This document shows, in pieces, positions 1-17,237 of a DNA stretch of 18,073 nucleotides. Position numbers and translations under genes: made by a program. This DNA comes from a virus (lineage: Duplodnaviria; Heunggongvirae; Uroviricota; Caudoviricetes): the IMG/VR virus record IMGVR_UViG_2526164650_000010, one strand, 5' to 3'. Within the stretch, counting starts at the first letter, position 1. The number at the start of each line of letters is the position of its first letter. The notes under the pieces are model-generated. The model saw only the letters and a list, made by a program, of their open reading frames with translations. It did not search any database and had not been told where the DNA came from.

Positions 1-436
1 ATGAAGCGTGAAGAAATCGCTGATCTGATGGCGTTTGTCGTCGTTGCAGAGGAGCGTAGCTTCACTCGCGCAGCAGCCCGCCTGAGCATGGTGCAGTCAG
101 CTTTAAGCCAGATAGTGCGCCGTATAGAAGAACGATTGGGATTGCGGCTTCTGACGCGAACCACGCGCAGCGTTGTACCCACTGAAGCGGGCGAGCATCT
201 TTTGTCTGTTCTTGGCCCTATATTGCATGACATAGATTCTGCCCTGACATCCCTGAGCGATCTGCAGAACCGCCCATCCGGGACAATACGTATTACTACT
301 GTAGAACATGCAGCAAAAACGATATTGTTACCAGCCATGCGCACATTCCTGAAATCGCATCCTGAAATTGATATTCAGCTTACCATTGATTATGGTTTGA
401 CCGATGTCGTTTCTGAACGTTTTGATGCAGGCGTCC
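1..436 (+). pseudogene. LysR-family transcriptional regulator, N-terminal (HTH plus start of effector domain) fragment, truncated by IS600
   Basis: Translation begins with a LysR-type HTH (FTRAAARLSMVQSALSQIVRRIEERLG...); the reading frame runs into the IS600 terminal repeat at 437, so the 160-aa ORF 1..483 is a gene-IS fusion, not an intact protein. Confidence 0.8.
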
Positions 437-1698
437 TGAGGTGTACTGGCAATAGCGGATACTACCATTTGTTCTTTTTTTAAGCAGCCATCTGATGATA
501 TTTTTCCCTGAAGGCTGCCGGGGAGATATTCCCCAGACGAGAGTGACGACGCTGACGATTGTAGAAAATCTCAATGTATTCCCGTATTACTGAGATGGCT
601 TCATCCCGGTTATTAAAACGATAGTGGCTCAGGCTCTCATTTTTCAGCGTTCCCCAGAAGCTTTCCATCGGAGCGTTGTCGTAACAGTTACCTTTACGCG
701 ACATTGATGTTTTCAGACCAGACTGCTCCTGTATGACCCGGTAATCGTATGCGCAGTACTGTGAACCTCGATCAGAGTGGTGGATTAGCCCGGCAGGTGG
801 GCGCTGGCTCCTGAGCGCCATAAACAGGGCTTTACCTGTCAGCTCTTTTGTCATGCGCTCTCCCATGGCGTAGCCGACAATTTCGCACGTATAAACATCT
901 TTGATGCCAGCGAGGTACAACCATCCCTCCTGTGTGGCAACATACGTCAGGTCCGCCACCCAGACCTGATTTGGTGCTGTAGGAGCGAACGTCTGGTTCA
1001 GCAGATTTGGCGCAACTGGCAGATTGTGGTTCGGGTTCGTAGTCGCTCTGAACTTGCGTTTCTGCTTACAGCGTAGCCTCAGCTCCTTACGAAGACGTGC
1101 CAGTCGGTCACGACCAACGATGATGCCATTCTCTGCCAGCTCCGTCTGGAGCCGCCGGGTTCCATATGTTTCGCGAGTGCGGATATGTGCCACCTTAATC
1201 TCCAGTTTTAGCCGCTCATCACTTTGTTTTCTGTCTGAGGGTTCATGCTGTACCCAGTTGTAATAACCGCTCCTGGATACACCAAATACCTGACACATCG
1301 CTTCAATGGGAAATTGTTGTCGCCATTGTTCGATTAACGCGTATTTTTCAGCGACTCCTGTGCAAAATACGCTGTTGCTTTTTTTAATATATCGCTCAAG
1401 GCGAGCTTCATTTAACGCCTTACGCAGTTGCAGAATTTCAGATTCCAGTTCAGCCAGCGTGCGGGAACCAGGAGTACCGAGCCCTTTTCTGGCGGCGGTA
1501 ACCCATTGTCCTAAAGTGCCTTCAGGAAGGGATAATCGGGAAGCGCCTTCACTGATTGAAAGTTGATTTTCAAGAACCGTTCTGACAGCTTCGGCTTTGA
1601 ACTCTTTAGAGTAACGTTGGGTTTTTCTGCTCATTATTAGCTCCTTCTGATGCCATTCTATTTCAGGAAGGAGTGTCCGTTAAACTCAGGCTACCTCA
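437..1698 (-). mobile_element. IS600 (IS3 family) copy A, 1262 bp, ends TGAGGT...ACCTCA
   Basis: Near-identical to the second copy at 11228..12491 over its whole length; terminal inverted repeats TGAGGTAGCC.../...CCAGTACACCTCA; flanking triplets differ (no target-site duplication). Confidence 0.85.
480..1634 (-). CDS. IS600 transposase, orfA-orfB fused in frame (384 aa)
   Basis: Single ORF whose N-terminus matches the 100-aa orfA and C-terminus the 272-aa orfB of copy B; a 2-bp deletion just upstream of the A7G slippery run (compare 1386..1400 with 11526..11542) places orfB in the orfA frame. Confidence 0.85.
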   Translation of the reverse strand: MSRKTQRYSKEFKAEAVRTVLENQLSISEGASRLSLPEGTLGQWVTAARKGLGTPGSRTLAELESEILQLRKALNEARLERYIKKSNSVFCTGVAEKYALIEQWRQQFPIEAMCQVFGVSRSGYYNWVQHEPSDRKQSDERLKLEIKVAHIRTRETYGTRRLQTELAENGIIVGRDRLARLRKELRLRCKQKRKFRATTNPNHNLPVAPNLLNQTFAPTAPNQVWVADLTYVATQEGWLYLAGIKDVYTCEIVGYAMGERMTKELTGKALFMALRSQRPPAGLIHHSDRGSQYCAYDYRVIQEQSGLKTSMSRKGNCYDNAPMESFWGTLKNESLSHYRFNNRDEAISVIREYIEIFYNRQRRHSRLGNISPAAFREKYHQMAA

Positions 1699-1737: not shown

Positions 1738-2150
1738 ATGGCCGCATTACCATACATGCAACTGTACATAGCTGATTACCTGGCTGACACCATGCATTTG
1801 TCAGCAGAGGAGCACGGCGCGTATTTGTTGCTGATGTTCAATTACTGGCAAACAGGAAAGCCAATACCCAAAAACAGGTTGGCAAAAATTGCCCGTCTGA
1901 CTAACGAGCGATGGGTTGATGTTGAACCATCCTTGCGGGAGTTTTTTTGTGATAACGGCGACGAATGGATGCATCTTCGGATTGAGGAAGATCTGGCATC
2001 TGTCAGAGAAAAATTAACCAAAAAATCAGCCGCAGGAAAAGCATCTGTTCAGGCCAGAAGAAGCAGAAAGGAAGCAGATGTTCAAACAAAACAAGAGAGA
2101 AATTTAACAGGTGTTCAAACAGATGTTGGAGTGGTGTTCGAACATGATGC
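1738..2150 (+). pseudogene. Phage replication protein (YdaU-like), 5' portion, interrupted by IS2
   Basis: ORF starting MAALPYMQLYIADYLADTMHLSAEEHGAYLLL...; the frame continues into IS2 at 2151 (track ORF 1738..2328 is a gene-IS fusion) and resumes in frame at 3487. Confidence 0.6.
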
Positions 2151-2161
2151 TGGATTTGCCC

Positions 2162-3067
2162 TTATATTTCCAGACATCTGTTATCACTTAACCCATTACA
2201 AGCCCGCTGCCGCAGATATTCCCGTGGCGAGCGATAACCCAGCGCACTATGCGGATGCCATTCGTTATAATGCTCGAACGCCTCTGCAAGGTTCTTTGCT
2301 GCCGTTAACCCGTCTGGTTTGGGCATGATACTGATGTAGTCACGCTTTATCGTTTTCACGAAGCTCTCTGCTATTCCGTTACTCTCCGGACTCCGCACCG
2401 CCGTGTTCTTCGGTTCAAGTCCCAACATCCGGGCGAACTGGCGTGTTTCATTAGCCCGGTAGCATGAACCATTATCCGTCAGCCACTCCACTGGAGACGA
2501 CGGAAGATCGTTGCCGAAGCGGCGTTCCACCGCTCCCAGCATGACGTCCTGTACTGTTTCACTGTTGAAGCCGCCGGTAGTCCCCGCCCAGTGCAGTGCC
2601 TCACGATCACAGCAGTCCAGCGCGAACGTGACACGCAGTCTCTCTCCGTTATCACAGCAGAACTCGAACCCGTCAGAGCACCATCGCTGATTGCTTTCTT
2701 TCACGGCCACTCTGCCTGTATGTGCCCGTTTCGATGGCGGTACAGCAGGTTTTCGCTCAAGCAACAGCGCATTCTGGCGCATGAGCCGGTAAACACGTTT
2801 GGCATTGATCGCAGGCATACCATCAAGTTCTGCCTGTCTGCGAAGCAGCGCCCATACCCGACGATAACCATACGTGGGCAGCTCTCCGATAACATGGTGT
2901 ATACGGAGAAGCACATCCGTATCATCAGTGTGACGACTGCGGCGGCCATCCATCCAGTCATCGGTTCGTCTGAGAATGACGTGCAACTGCGCACGCGACA
3001 CCCGGAGACAACGGCTGACTAAGCTTACTCCCCATCCCCGGGCAATAAGGGCGCGTGCGCTATCCAC
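2162..3067 (-). CDS. insD: IS2 transposase OrfB (InsD), 301 aa
   Basis: 301-aa ORF with DDE-type integrase core; overlaps upstream orfA as in IS3-family -1 frameshift arrangement. Confidence 0.9.
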
Positions 3068-3387
3068 TTTTTTGCCCGTCCATATTCAACGGCTTCTTTG
3101 AGGAGTTCATTTTCCATCGTTTTCTTGCCGAGCAGGCGCTGGAGTTCTTTAATCTGCTTCATGGCGGCAGCAAGTTCAGAGGCAGGAACAACCTGTTCTC
3201 CGGCGGCCACAGCAGTAAGACTTCCTTCCTGGTATTGCTTACGCCAGAGAAATAACTGGCTGGCTGCTACACCATGTTGCCGGGCAACGAGGGAGACCGT
3301 CATCCCCGGTTCAAAGCTCTGCTGAACAATTGCGATCTTTTCCTGTGTGGTACGCCGTCTGCGTTTCTCCGGCCCTAAGACATCAAT
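3025..3387 (-). CDS. insC: IS2 OrfA (InsC) HTH protein, about 121 aa
   Basis: Translation ...[43 protein letters not shown]...; the codon at the expected initiator position reads ATT here, and the open frame extends upstream to a GTG at 3435. Confidence 0.75.
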
Positions 3388-3486
3388 AATCTGTTCTCCA
3401 ATGACAAGTCTAAAAACTGGTATTAAGACTATCACTTAAATAAGTGATACTGGTTGTCTGGAGATTCAGGGGGCCAGTCTAGATGC

Positions 3487-7869: not shown

Positions 7870-7940
7870 AGCCCCAGTTAACATTACGCGTCCTGCAAGA
7901 CGCTTAACATTAATCTGAGGCCCAATCTATGTCTCACAAA
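7870..7940 (-). ncRNA. Candidate Sok-like antisense RNA overlapping the mok start
   Basis: Minus-strand TTGCCT-17nt-TAACCT (7972..7944) would start transcription near 7937, antisense to the mok initiation region; a minus-strand hairpin GCGTC-ttgcag-GACGC lies downstream. Weak promoter match; hypothesis only. Confidence 0.2.
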
Positions 7941-8141
7941 TGTAGGTTAGCCTCTTACGTGCCGAAAGGCAAGGAGAAGCAGGCTATGAAGCAGCAAAAG
8001 GCGATGTTAATCGCCCTGATCGTCATCTGTTTAACCGTCATAGTGACGGCACTGGTAACGAGGAAAGACCTCTGCGAGGTACGAATCCGAACCGGCCAGA
8101 CGGAGGTCGCTGTCTTCACAGCTTACGAACCTGAGGAGTAA
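7929..8141 (+). CDS. mok-like reading frame (in-frame N-terminal extension of hok, 70 aa)
   Basis: ATG at 7929 opens a frame that contains the whole Hok peptide, as in chromosomal mok/hok loci. Confidence 0.45.
   Translation: MSHKCRLASYVPKGKEKQAMKQQKAMLIALIVICLTVIVTALVTRKDLCEVRIRTGQTEVAVFTAYEPEE
7986..8141 (+). CDS. hokD: Hok/Gef-family membrane toxin, HokD (RelF)-like, 51 aa
   Basis: MKQQKAMLIALIVICLTVIVTALVTRKDLCEVRIRTGQTEVAVFTAYEPEE: hydrophobic TM segment followed by the conserved TRKxLCE motif of Hok proteins. Confidence 0.85.
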   Translation: MKQQKAMLIALIVICLTVIVTALVTRKDLCEVRIRTGQTEVAVFTAYEPEE

Positions 8142-8210
8142 GAGACCAGGCGGGGGAGAAATCCCTCGCCACCTCTCATGTGTCAGGCATCCTCAACGCA
8201 CCCGCACTAA

Positions 8211-8231
8211 ACCCGCTTCGGCGGGTTTTTT
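8211..8231 (+). terminator. Rho-independent terminator downstream of hok
   Basis: ACCCGC-ttcg-GCGGGT hairpin followed by TTTTTT. Confidence 0.7.
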
Positions 8232-8376
8232 GTTGCGTGCTGAATACGCAGGGTGAAAAATAACCATATATTTGATTATATACACAACAAAAATAAAAGT
8301 CATTGTACTTGCACATTAAACAATCAAATATACGGCGTGAAATAAATATTTATCAGATTAATATTTTTGTCTCTAT

Positions 8377-8628
8377 GTGGATATAACCGTTTGTACTTAT
8401 AAACCTGGGGGCATCGTGGAAAAAATAAAGAAACTATTTAGTAGCAAATACGCAGTCATACGTCGTGATGACCTGTCAGTTATAGTCGAAATGGATTACT
8501 TCCCTGAAACCCCAAAATCAATAATGTATCGTAATGGTCGAAAGGCAATTTTTTTACCGATGAGGGTAAGTGACATTATGGGAAATGATAAACTGCTGGA
8601 TGAATTGCGAGTCAGAGCATCCTGTTAG
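8377..8628 (+). CDS. Small phage protein, Rem-like (83 aa)
   Basis: 83-aa ORF directly downstream of hok, as rem is in the K-12 Qin prophage (from memory); GTG start in this frame; its stop codon TAG lies inside the left IS1 target duplication. Confidence 0.55.
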   Translation: MDITVCTYKPGGIVEKIKKLFSSKYAVIRRDDLSVIVEMDYFPETPKSIMYRNGRKAIFLPMRVSDIMGNDKLLDELRVRASC

Positions 8629-8645
8629 TAGGTAATGACTCCAAC

Positions 8646-9136
8646 TTACTGATAGTGTTTTATGTTCAGATAATGCCCGATGACCTTGTCATGCAGCTCC
8701 ACCGATTTTGAGAACGACAGTGACTTCCGTCCCAGCCTTGCCAGATGTTGTCTCAGCTTCAGATTATGTCGCTCAATGCGCTGAGTGTAACGCTTGCTGA
8801 TAACGTGCAGCTTTCCCTTCAGGCGTGATTCATACAGCGGCCAGCCATCCGTCATCCATACCACGACCTCAAACTCAGAAGACGCTCCAGTGTGGCCAGA
8901 GTGCGTTCACCGAAGACGTGCGCCACAACCGTCCTCCGTATCCTGTCATACGCGTAAAACAGCCAGCGCTGACGTGATTTAGCACCGACGTAGCCCCAAT
9001 GTTCGTCCATTTCAGCGCAGACAATCACATCACTGCCCGGTTGTATGCGCGAGGTTACCGACTGCGGCCTGAGTTTTTTAAGTGACGTAAAACCGTGTTG
9101 AGGCCAACGCCCATAATGCGTGCACTGGCGCGACAT
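8646..9136 (-). pseudogene. insB: IS1 insB, frameshifted by 13-bp deletion
   Basis: InsB homology split into two overlapping ORFs (8852..9136 and 8646..8864); the break coincides with the 13-bp deletion near 8873/8874. Confidence 0.8.
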
Positions 9137-9330
9137 CCGACGCCATTCATGGCCATATCAATGATTTTCTGGTGCGTACCGGGCTGAGAGGCGGTGTAAG
9201 TGAACTGTAGTTGCCATGTTTTACGGCAATGAGAGCAGAGATAGCGCTGATGTCCGGCAGTGCTTTTGCCGTTACGCACCACGCCTTCAGTAGCGGAGCA
9301 GGAAGGACATCTGATGGAAATGGAAGCCAC
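9055..9330 (-). CDS. insA: IS1 InsA (91 aa)
   Basis: [42 protein letters not shown]... zinc-finger/HTH InsA. Confidence 0.9.
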
Positions 9331-11176: not shown

Positions 11177-11227
11177 ATGACCACTCAAATCTCTGTTGAA
11201 ACTCTCTCCCCGATCACCCATAACCAG
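11177..11227 (+). pseudogene. Phage antirepressor-like gene, 5' 17 codons, interrupted by IS600
   Basis: ATG with GGAG RBS, MTTQISVETLSPITHNQ, then IS600 terminal repeat at 11228; frame resumes at 12495. Confidence 0.45.
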
Positions 11228-11291
11228 TGAGGTAGCCTGAGTTTAACGGACACTCCTTCCTGAAATAGAATGGCATCAGAAGGAGCTAATA

Positions 11292-11594
11292 ATGAGCAGA
11301 AAAACCCAACGTTACTCTAAAGAGTTCAAAGCCGAAGCTGTCAGAACGGTTCTTGAAAATCAACTTTCGATCAGTGAAGGCGCTTCCCGATTATCCCTTC
11401 CTGAAGGCACTTTAGGACAATGGGTTACCGCCGCCAGAAAAGGGCTCGGTACTCCTGGTTCCCGCACGGTGGCTGAACTGGAATCTGAAATTCTGCAACT
11501 GCGTAAGGCGTTAAATGAAGCTCGCCTTGAGCGAGATATATTAAAAAAAGCAACAGCGTATTTTGCACAGGAGTCGCTGAAAAATACGCGTTAA
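11292..11594 (+). CDS. IS600 OrfA (HTH protein, 100 aa)
   Basis: MSRKTQRYSKEFKAEAVRTVLENQLSISEGASRLSLPEGTLGQWV... with leucine-zipper-like C-terminus. Confidence 0.9.
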   Translation: MSRKTQRYSKEFKAEAVRTVLENQLSISEGASRLSLPEGTLGQWVTAARKGLGTPGSRTVAELESEILQLRKALNEARLERDILKKATAYFAQESLKNTR

Positions 11595-11629
11595 TCGAAC
11601 AATGGCGACAACAATTTCCCATTGAAGCG

Positions 11630-12448
11630 ATGTGTCAGGTATTTGGTGTATCCAGGAGCGGTTATTACAACTGGGTACAGCATGAACCCTCAGACAGAAA
11701 ACAAAGTGATGAGCGGCTAAAACTGGAGATTAAGGTGGCACATATCCGCACTCGCGAAACATATGGAACCCGGCGGCTCCAGACGGAGCTGGCAGAGAAT
11801 GGCATCATCGTTGGTCGTGACCGACTGGCACGTCTTCGTAAGGAGCTGAGGCTACGCTGTAAGCAGAAACGCAAGTTCAGAGCGACTACGAACCCGAACC
11901 ACAATCTGCCAGTTGCGCCAAATCTGCTGAACCAGACGTTCGCTCCTACAGCACCAAATCAGGTCTGGGTGGCGGACCTGACGTATGTTGCCACACAGGA
12001 GGGATGGTTGTACCTCGCTGGCATCAAAGATGTTTATACGTGTGAAATTGTCGGCTACGCCATGGGAGAGCGCATGACAAAAGAGCTGACAGGTAAAGCC
12101 CTGTTTATGGCGCTCAGGAGCCAGCGCCCACCTGCCGGGCTAATCCACCACTCTGATCGAGGTTCACAGTACTGCGCATACGATTACCGGGTCATACAGG
12201 AGCAGTCTGGTCTGAAAACATCAATGTCGCGTAAAGGTAACTGTTACGACAACGCTCCGATGGAAAGCTTCTGGGGAACGCTGAAAAATGAGAGCCTGAG
12301 CCACTATCGTTTTAATAACCGGGATGAAGCCATCTCAGTAATACGGGAATACATTGAGATTTTCTACAATCGTCAGCGTCGTCACTCTCGTCTGGGGAAT
12401 ATCTCCCCGGCAGCCTTCAGGGAAAAATATCATCAGATGGCTGCTTAA
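11630..12448 (+). CDS. IS600 OrfB (DDE transposase catalytic domain, 272 aa from ATG)
   Basis: The -1 frame relative to orfA is open from 11531; DDE-type motifs (WVADLTY..., HSDRGSQY..., NCYDNAPMESFWGTLK). Confidence 0.85.
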   Translation: MCQVFGVSRSGYYNWVQHEPSDRKQSDERLKLEIKVAHIRTRETYGTRRLQTELAENGIIVGRDRLARLRKELRLRCKQKRKFRATTNPNHNLPVAPNLLNQTFAPTAPNQVWVADLTYVATQEGWLYLAGIKDVYTCEIVGYAMGERMTKELTGKALFMALRSQRPPAGLIHHSDRGSQYCAYDYRVIQEQSGLKTSMSRKGNCYDNAPMESFWGTLKNESLSHYRFNNRDEAISVIREYIEIFYNRQRRHSRLGNISPAAFREKYHQMAA

Positions 12449-12494
12449 AAAAAGAACAAATGGTAGTGTCCGCTATTGCCAGTACACCTCACAG

Positions 12495-13001
12495 ATTCCT
12501 GTTATTACCACCGAACTTTTGGCGCAGCTTTACGGCACTGAGCCGGTGCGTATTCGCCAGAATCATCATGAGAACAAAGTACGCTTCGTTGAAGGGAAAC
12601 ACTTTTTCAAAGTTGTTGGTAATGACCTTAAAGAATTGCGGGTCGCTTTAAACTACTCACAAAATCCAGTTTCACCCAAAGCCCGCTCCCTCATCCTCTG
12701 GACAGAACGAGGCGCAGCACGCCACGGCAAAATGCTCGAAACCGATCAGGCGTGGGATGTGTTCGAAAAACTGGAAGACTGCTATTTCAGTCAAAGGGAT
12801 CCGTCAACGCCAGTTTCATGCCAGAAAAGTTACGACACGCGAGTTCTCTGTTATCAGAGAGGCGGTGTCACTGTTTCCACAATTCAGTTACGGGATGATG
12901 ATATTGTTATTTCCCTTGAGTCATGGCTGGAACTGGCGAGAGCCAATGGTTGGTTTGTTGTTCGCAGAGATAAACTGGTGGAAAGGTTGATGCAGCTTTA
13001 A
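12495..13001 (+). pseudogene. Phage antirepressor-like gene, 3' portion (169 codons)
   Basis: In frame with 11177..11227 after removing IS600 and one CAG copy; the track ORF 12354..13001 begins inside the IS. Confidence 0.5.
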
Positions 13002-13634: not shown

Positions 13635-15239
13635 ATGATTCAGCTATCCAGTAGTCACAAACTTCCAGCAGTCTACTATCTCTACCAGCGTAACGGCGTC
13701 TACTACTTCCGTCTTAGGGTCAGACAATCAAACAATGATAGAATGACCTCAATATCATTACGGACCAAGGATAGACGCACCGCTATGGCTTACTCAAGGC
13801 ACATAAAGGCAGCACTCAAGGCAATACACGCAGACAGACCCAACGCTACCTATGAGGAAATGAGGGAACACCTTAAGGACATCGCTGAGTGTGAACTGTC
13901 TATGGGCCGTTCAGATCTCTTTGAGCCTGACATGAGGGATATCTACCGGGACCAATACGGAGAACTTGGTGAGAGCCTTACCGATGCTCTGGCTAGTGAG
14001 CCGCTAAGCATTGACCAGCATCGTTACATCAATGAGGCCCTGAAGGTGCTAAAAGCCTGTATGAGGCGTATCGAAGCGGGAGACAGTCAGCTTCTGATAG
14101 ATTACGTCGATCTTTTTAATGATATTGATAGGCAAGATAACCAAGCAGACTCTGTGTCCCTATCTGTTAATGCTCCAGAAGTAAAACCAGAAGTTACGCC
14201 TAGCATTACCATAGCGAGCCTCTTTGAGCAATACGAAGCGGAGAACTATCAGAACTGGAAGCCTGCAACCTTAAGGGAAAACAAGGCGTCACACGCTGCG
14301 TTAATCGAAATATTCGACCATCTGGGTCTCAATGCAGACGCTAACAGGGCTGACATGCTTAGGGTCCGTGATGTGCTCCAGCAGTTACCTAGGAACCGTA
14401 AGCAGCGCTTCAAGGATGTCCCACTTGCTGACCTGTTGAGCCGTGAAGATAAGACAGATTGTCTGGATGTCGTTACCATCAACAACAAGTATCTTATTAA
14501 GATGGCTGCTGTCTTTAGGTGGGCTGTGCGCAATGACTTGATTAAAAAGAACATGACTGAGGGTCTGGAGCTTAAAGTCCCTCAGCGTAAAGCCTCAGGG
14601 GCCCGTAACGCCTTCTCTACGGAGCAGGTGGGGCAACTACTGGTCGCAGCTAAGGCATACTCTCAGAAGACCTCTGGTAAGCCGTATCATTATTATGTTA
14701 CCGCCTTGGCTGCTATCACTGGGGCGAGACTCAATGAAATAGCCCAACTACAGGTCAAAGACGTCAGGACCACTGAGGCGGGAACCGTTTATATTCATAT
14801 CAATGAAGACGATAGTAGTCTACCCGGTAAGAGCATCAAGAACGCTCATAGTGACCGCTGTGTGCCTCTGGTCGATGGGGCCTATGGTTTTATATTGGCT
14901 GACTTTATGGCGCTTGTAGAGACCCGTAGAGGCGCTGACGGTGATGACGCTATGGTGTTCGATGGTCTGCGTCTCATGAAGAACGGTTACGGTGAGCAGG
15001 TGAGTAAATGGTTTAATCGGACGTTGTTGCCTAAAGTCCTCGTAGACCGTAGCGGCTTAGCGTTTCACTCGTTTAGACATACAGTTGCGGCCCAGTTAAA
15101 ACAACATGGGGTCGAGTTGGCGTATGCACAGGCGATCATGGGGCATAGTTCAGGGTCTATTACGTACGACCGTTATGCTAAAGAGGTCGAGGTTGATAGG
15201 CTGGTCAATGTGATGGCTGATGTTTATAAGGAGACCTAG
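13635..15239 (+). CDS. Tyrosine site-specific recombinase (phage-type integrase), 534 aa
   Basis: C-terminal catalytic signature: R (TGARLNEIAQL), H-x-x-R (HSFRHTVA), H and Y nucleophile (MGHSSGSITYDRYAK); N-terminal arm-type start (YQRNGVYYFRLRV); begins 114 bp after tRNA-Gly. Confidence 0.9.
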   Translation: MIQLSSSHKLPAVYYLYQRNGVYYFRLRVRQSNNDRMTSISLRTKDRRTAMAYSRHIKAALKAIHADRPNATYEEMREHLKDIAECELSMGRSDLFEPDMRDIYRDQYGELGESLTDALASEPLSIDQHRYINEALKVLKACMRRIEAGDSQLLIDYVDLFNDIDRQDNQADSVSLSVNAPEVKPEVTPSITIASLFEQYEAENYQNWKPATLRENKASHAALIEIFDHLGLNADANRADMLRVRDVLQQLPRNRKQRFKDVPLADLLSREDKTDCLDVVTINNKYLIKMAAVFRWAVRNDLIKKNMTEGLELKVPQRKASGARNAFSTEQVGQLLVAAKAYSQKTSGKPYHYYVTALAAITGARLNEIAQLQVKDVRTTEAGTVYIHINEDDSSLPGKSIKNAHSDRCVPLVDGAYGFILADFMALVETRRGADGDDAMVFDGLRLMKNGYGEQVSKWFNRTLLPKVLVDRSGLAFHSFRHTVAAQLKQHGVELAYAQAIMGHSSGSITYDRYAKEVEVDRLVNVMADVYKET

Positions 15240-15996: not shown

Positions 15997-16837
<841 letters not shown>

Positions 16838-16892
16838 AGGATAATGCGCTCTGAGTTTCCCGATTATCGAGAACTGTTCAGGGAGTCTGACA

Positions 16893-17165
16893 TCAAGAGC
16901 GCGGTAGCCTTTTTAATATTTCATTCTCCATTTCAATGCGTTGTAGCTTTTTCCTGAGCTCACGGATTTCAATTTGTTCCGGGGTAATGGGGGAGGCTTT
17001 TGGTGTTTTGCCCTGACGCTCATCACGCAGTTGTTTGACCCATCTTGTCATTGTGGAAAGGCCAACATCCATAGCTTTGGCGGCATCTGCCACCGTGTAT
17101 TTCTGGTCAACAACCAGTTGAGCGGATTCGCGTTTAAACTCTGCGCTAAAATTTCTTTTTTTCAT
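16893..17165 (-). CDS. IS911 OrfA with altered C-terminus
   Basis: [46 protein letters not shown]...; the slippery run reads ATTAAAAAGG (five A before G), which is one A short of an A-AAA-AAG heptamer. Confidence 0.75.
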
Positions 17166-17237
17166 TGGAGCACCTGTGTTGTTCTGAGGTGAGCATATCA
17201 CCTCTGTTCAGGTGGCCAAATTCAGTGTGCCACTTCA

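Follow-up and report, generated by a model that had tools for sequence, protein, structure and literature searches.

The 18,073-nucleotide stretch of Shigella flexneri DNA analysed here (the window) carries two copies of the insertion sequence IS600, one of which (copy A) reads as a single transposase frame where the other (copy B) has the usual two. IS600 and the frameshift control of IS3-family elements are textbook subjects, and the locus raises the question of whether copy A has escaped that control. The original prediction was that a 2-bp deletion fuses orfA and orfB in copy A, which may make transposase constitutively and without OrfA. Its identification of the element as IS600, of the frame fusion and of the domains in the product held; its interpretation of the product as a working constitutive transposase free of OrfA was not supported. 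Our comparisons suggest that the deletion is probably either a sequencing artefact or a mutation with damaging effect.

Copy A (437..1698, minus strand) is 1262 bp long; copy B (11228..12491, plus strand) is 1264 bp long and has the wild-type layout. Against the many copies annotated as 'IS3-like element IS600', the element has 99.4% nucleotide identity at 100% coverage, where a full-length nucleotide identity of at least 95% was taken to define an IS600 isoform. The terminal inverted repeats of copy A lie at 1667..1698 (left, TGAGGTAGCC...) and 437..468 (right, ...GTACACCTCA), both on the minus strand. These repeats (TGAGGT... / ...ACCTCA) match at 19–20 of 32 positions and at all six of the outermost ones, and the 5'-TG...CA-3' ends are present. 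In the right repeat, 24 nt from the end, copy A has an A for copy B's G, and this A is common to all orthologous copies.

Copy B encodes a 100-aa OrfA (11292..11594, plus strand) and, in the −1 frame, a 272-aa OrfB (11630..12448, plus strand), and is flanked by a 3-bp target duplication, CAG (11225..11227 and 12492..12494). Both copies have the A7G slippery run and, downstream of it, a hairpin (GCGUAUUUU ... AAAAUACGC), whereas the two-frame layout of orfA and orfB is found in copy B and not in copy A. In copy A, the run lies at 1378..1385 (minus strand), where the continuing frame takes it as AAA AAA AGC in place of the native register, A AAA AAA G; the hairpin occupies approximately 1339..1372 (minus strand) and is unchanged. 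Its equivalent in copy B is predicted to fold with −23.9 kcal/mol (z = −2.25), and the structure is presumed to be the stimulator of frameshifting.

In a full-length alignment of the two copies, copy A (as its reverse complement) differs from copy B by substitutions at four positions (142, 242, 816 and 1241 of copy B) and by one 2-bp gap, the GA of copy B columns 306–307, which falls between window bases 1392 and 1391. Copy A has CTTGAGCGATATATTAAAAAAAG where copy B has CTTGAGCGAGATATATTAAAAAAAG or, over a longer stretch, GAGCGATATATTAAAAAAAG against GAGCGAGATATATTAAAAAAAG. The deletion is 7 nt upstream of the A7 run; at this site (1388..1395, minus strand), wild-type GAGCGAGATAT is GAGCGATAT in copy A, and the D82-I83-L84 codons become Y-I. 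The difference between the copies is an exact one, for which chance is not at issue. The alignment thus bears out the loss of two bases upstream of the slippery run that the original prediction had described. Both regions were read and their open reading frames listed, and every coordinate and length that it gave proved correct, including the normal IS3-family arrangement of copy B. Its remark that the loss is frame-equivalent to the −1 shift was likewise right: a single ORF of 384 aa runs through 480..1634 on the minus strand.

The fused protein and its leucine zipper

The fused ORF comprises an HTH_Tnp_1 domain, a leucine-zipper region, an HTH_21 domain and the rve core. It scores 402.6 bits on the NCBIfam model transpos_IS3 (cutoff 160) and retains an intact DD(35)E triad (D228, D288 and E324); a search of solved structures with the fused protein returned no match. 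These features, together with the agreement of both IS ends of copy A with those of orthologous copies, are what would be expected if the deletion were real and active OrfAB were made constitutively, without frameshifting or OrfA, raising IS600 activity in the strain. Fusions engineered in IS911 and IS2, which yield mainly OrfAB, offer a precedent (PMC2909936; PMC3219604). We nevertheless regard this account as unlikely, because the engineered fusions keep the sequence of OrfAB and copy A does not.

The orfA frame of copy B runs TTA AAA AAA GCA, and after a −1 slip on A AAA AAA the next codon is AGC; the translations of copy B give a native OrfAB of 385 aa with the junction ...LERDILKK|SNSVF. 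The copy A product has 384 aa and reads ...LERYIKKSNS (LERYIKKSNSVF) in place of ...LERDILKKSNS, which amounts to D82Y and the loss of Leu84 (DIL to YI). The two proteins differ because the deletion precedes the slip site, so that the frame changes earlier. The fused product is therefore equivalent to the natural frameshift product in frame but not in sequence.

The residues affected are strongly conserved. We aligned the 100-aa OrfA with 52 relatives (37–59% identity; 53 sequences in all) drawn from a search of 1.84 billion representative proteins. Leucine occupies position 84 in 52 of the 53 sequences, position 83 is I, V, L, M or F in all 53, and position 82 is D or E in 52/53. The zipper heptads place d positions at 63, 70, 77 and 84 and a positions at 67, 74 and 81; on this assignment, Leu84 is the d-position leucine of heptad 4 and, of the hydrophobic residues in the motif, the most conserved. 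The IS2 zipper substitutions L83V and L97H abolish transposition (PMC3219604), and the title of Haren 1998, as cited in PMC2909936, describes the zipper of IS911 as essential for activity.

If the deletion is real and very recent, the fused product may be a damaged transposase, impaired in multimerisation and end binding, and copy A would be a neutral, decaying copy, not an activated one. The loss of a near-invariant leucine next to D82Y, the IS2 mutants and the IS911 title all point this way, as does a change of GAGA to GA that is plausible as a slippage event. Weighing on the other side, the adjacent Ile83 is kept and could partly replace the lost leucine, and the lesion lies where the zipper ends, a place that may be more tolerant of change. 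We consider a damaged transposase a possible explanation, though short of a probable one. Least likely of all is a real deletion whose D82Y/ΔL84 OrfAB is still active, which would make copy A a natural, frameshift-free copy whose zipper might escape control by heteromultimers with OrfA. Such a protein, if real and active, would make copy A a spontaneous up-mutant, from which a burst of IS600 peculiar to the strain could follow.

A real deletion would also change the set of proteins made from copy A. The variant OrfAB would be its main product, and copy A would make no OrfA. Further products can be inferred: a short HTH-zipper protein ending ...YIKK-KQQRILHRSR, from a −1 slip in the new register, and one reading ...YIKK-ATAYFAQESLKNTR, from a +1 slip or a transcript short of one A. 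The cell would not lack OrfA, since an intact orfA is encoded by copy B, 9.5 kb from copy A, and copy B and many other copies can supply the protein in trans: S. flexneri genomes carry dozens of copies of IS600, which is among the five insertion sequences expanded in all Shigella species (PMC7373316). This supply in trans further weakens the case for a transposase working free of OrfA. A deletion both real and compatible with activity would show frameshift control being escaped in nature, within a genus whose evolution the expansion of insertion sequences has shaped.

Distribution of the allele and flanks of the insertion

Only one contig on record encodes the exact 384-aa protein: AFHD01000018.1, from a 2011-era draft (GCA_000213495.2) and evidently the source of the window. 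To follow the insertion itself, we used the gene that it interrupts as a marker. Copy A cuts off a LysR-family regulator (pgrR/ycjZ-like; 1..483, plus strand), leaving a 160-aa chimeric LysR-IS ORF that ends inside the IS and marks this particular insertion. The chimeric protein occurs in 364 blocks of the collection, of which 10 loci are listed (L002–L011), from S. flexneri. In all ten of these listed loci, IS600 stands at the LysR junction with a length of 1264 bp and with GA present, and the four bases that distinguish copy A from copy B are common to 10/10. Because the listed loci share both the junction and the four diagnostic bases, copy A is the orthologue of a long-standing, vertically inherited S. 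flexneri insertion with one private change. Contig AFHD01000018.1 and CP007037 are identical over 8483 nt save for these two bases.

An 80-bp probe for the deletion junction found no exact match by BLAST in 3140 E. coli records or in 335 plasmid records (128 of them from Shigella), where it matched only the wild-type form, at 97.6% (80/82). An exact-pattern scan for the junction gave 0 matches in species-representative genomes and in metagenome contigs. A gapped pattern tolerating any small indel recovered 59 IS600 copies in the species-representative genomes, all of wild-type length (42 with GAGCGAGAT and 17 with GAGCGCGAT); they came from three records, with nearly all of the copies in S. 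flexneri SFBU1023 and E. coli ECMA0423.

We considered whether the fused allele has spread and rejected this, the exact protein being confined to one contig and the junction absent from the other collections searched. The allele thus has no second site and shows no sign of having copied itself, as a damaged transposase would predict. That it occurs at one site in one assembly, with a copy B free of the deletion in the same window, also counts against a fused OrfAB that raises IS600 activity.

IS600 was also seen on a 1380-bp contig assigned to Streptomyces sp. UG1 (L041, NZ_JBNGGG010000135.1; coverage 1.3), almost certainly as a contaminant derived from E. coli or Shigella.

No target duplication borders copy A, whose flanking bases in IS orientation are AAG (left) and GGA (right). 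The same insertion in AE014073 (L009, 4420..5720; S. flexneri 2a 2457T) has TCC on either side and retains its native downstream genes, with an SBP_bac_5 gene and a mechanosensitive-channel gene following it. The window shares with nine other genomes a different IRL-side flank, a Rac-like prophage that carries DUF1376/YdaU-like and IstB-like ATPase genes. Because the AE014073 orthologue has TCC/TCC, the duplication was lost after the insertion and was not absent when it occurred. Its loss dates to the replacement of the IRL-side flank by prophage DNA, in an IS600-mediated rearrangement older than the strain, presumably through recombination or deletion between IS600 copies. An inversion between copies A and B was considered as the cause of the missing duplication and rejected, since CAG/CAG is intact around copy B and the prophage flank is found in nine other genomes.

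Other mobile and phage genes surround the two copies. An IS2-like element (2162..3435, minus strand; orfA of 136 aa with a GTG start, orfB of 301 aa) sits in the DUF1376 (YdaU-like) prophage replication gene (1738..2328, plus strand), and its transposase is annotated in orthologous loci as 424, 409 or 301 aa. Copy B interrupts an ORF6N-domain (antirepressor-like) gene (12354..13001, plus strand), whose called start lies inside the IS end; a hok/gef-type toxin and IS1 fragments lie near this gene, at about 7929..9140. Between copy B and an IS911-like element is a tyrosine recombinase of 534 aa (13635..15239, plus strand) with a Phage_integrase domain and a faint DUF6538, the exact protein of which occurs in 105 blocks, mostly short contigs.

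Assembly error or real deletion

We compared the 18-kb window with its nearest complete relatives (L006, L012 and L013) and a sister draft (L014) and found four private indel events and zero private substitutions, three of the four events lying in IS copies: GA missing at 1391/1392, one A missing from an A run at 8288, a C gained at 16510 and a T missing at 16909. The sister draft AFHB has six single-base homopolymer indels over comparable lengths. A spectrum made up of indels alone fits consensus error of the pyrosequencing type, and not divergence, the platform itself being inferred from the error pattern. Some three such errors per 18 kb would scale to several hundred genome-wide, and even a small non-homopolymer fraction of these would exceed the genuine private deletions expected, which are few because the strain is very close to its relatives.

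The deletion is not a classic error of this type. Each of the nine remaining private indels in the two drafts alters a homopolymer by a single base. The GA loss instead removes 2 bp within GAGA, at a distance of 7 nt from the A7 run, and this counts against an artefact; a replication slip from GAGA to GA is mechanistically plausible. On balance, we judge the likeliest explanation, with moderate confidence, to be an indel error of consensus or assembly within a multi-copy repeat. The two bases would then be present in the real DNA, and copy A would be an element of normal layout, with the same arrangement of orfA, −1 frameshift and orfB as its orthologues. So serious a possibility of artefact is a further point against active OrfAB made from copy A.

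The private differences of the draft, all of them indels, join the lost Leu84, the restriction of the allele to one draft, the wild-type form of the 10 listed orthologues and the orfA encoded 9.5 kb away in speaking against a constitutive, OrfA-free transposase. Copy A therefore matters little in itself, being private, unspread, damaged at a conserved residue and quite possibly an assembly error. More generally, indels within repeats of old draft assemblies need read support.

The window contains a third IS3-family element, the IS911-like one (15997..17201, minus strand), with an OrfA ending ...IEMENEILK and ORFs of 102, 116 and 167 aa. It is broken by the loss of one nucleotide in its own slippery A6G run (16909) and by the extra C (16510). 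Both changes are private to the draft in comparison with L013 and L014, and the breaks look like homopolymer assembly errors.

Comparison with other frame-fused transposases

Annotated IS600 shares with the copies described here its ends, the A7G run and a 3-bp target duplication (CAG for copy B, TCC for the AE014073 orthologue of copy A), and it encodes an orfA of 100 aa and an orfB of 272 aa, as copy B does. Its normal length is 1264 bp; copy A differs in having 1262 bp, the missing GA merging both frames.

Fusing the frames so that OrfAB is made constitutively is routine laboratory practice. Among experimental systems, the closest are the engineered IS911 and IS2 fusions, in which one base was inserted in the slippery run and OrfAB became the main product (PMC2909936; PMC3219604). 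These are like copy A in that a change of +1 or −2 nt merges orfA with orfB. They differ in where the change lies: the base was inserted within the A run, so that the protein is the same as the natural frameshift product, whereas the lesion of copy A is 7 nt upstream and turns DIL into YI. The lesson is that an indel equivalent in frame need not give a fusion equivalent in sequence.

E. coli genomes in RefSeq hold a counterpart of the engineered design. A probe with an A8 run had a perfect match in three E. coli records (the chromosomes CP027351 and OY754853 and the plasmid CP058683), at three unrelated sites (L020, L021 and L022), each annotated as an uninterrupted 385-aa coding sequence (WP_106914028.1). 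Such A8 copies could be frame-fused in nature or could result from homopolymer errors of assembly. Like copy A, they have orfA and orfB fused in the deposited sequence; unlike it, they gain one A within the run and keep the length and junction of native OrfAB, where copy A loses two bases upstream and encodes a 384-aa variant. Frame-fused IS600 alleles are thus already known in deposited genomes, and copy A falls within known kinds.
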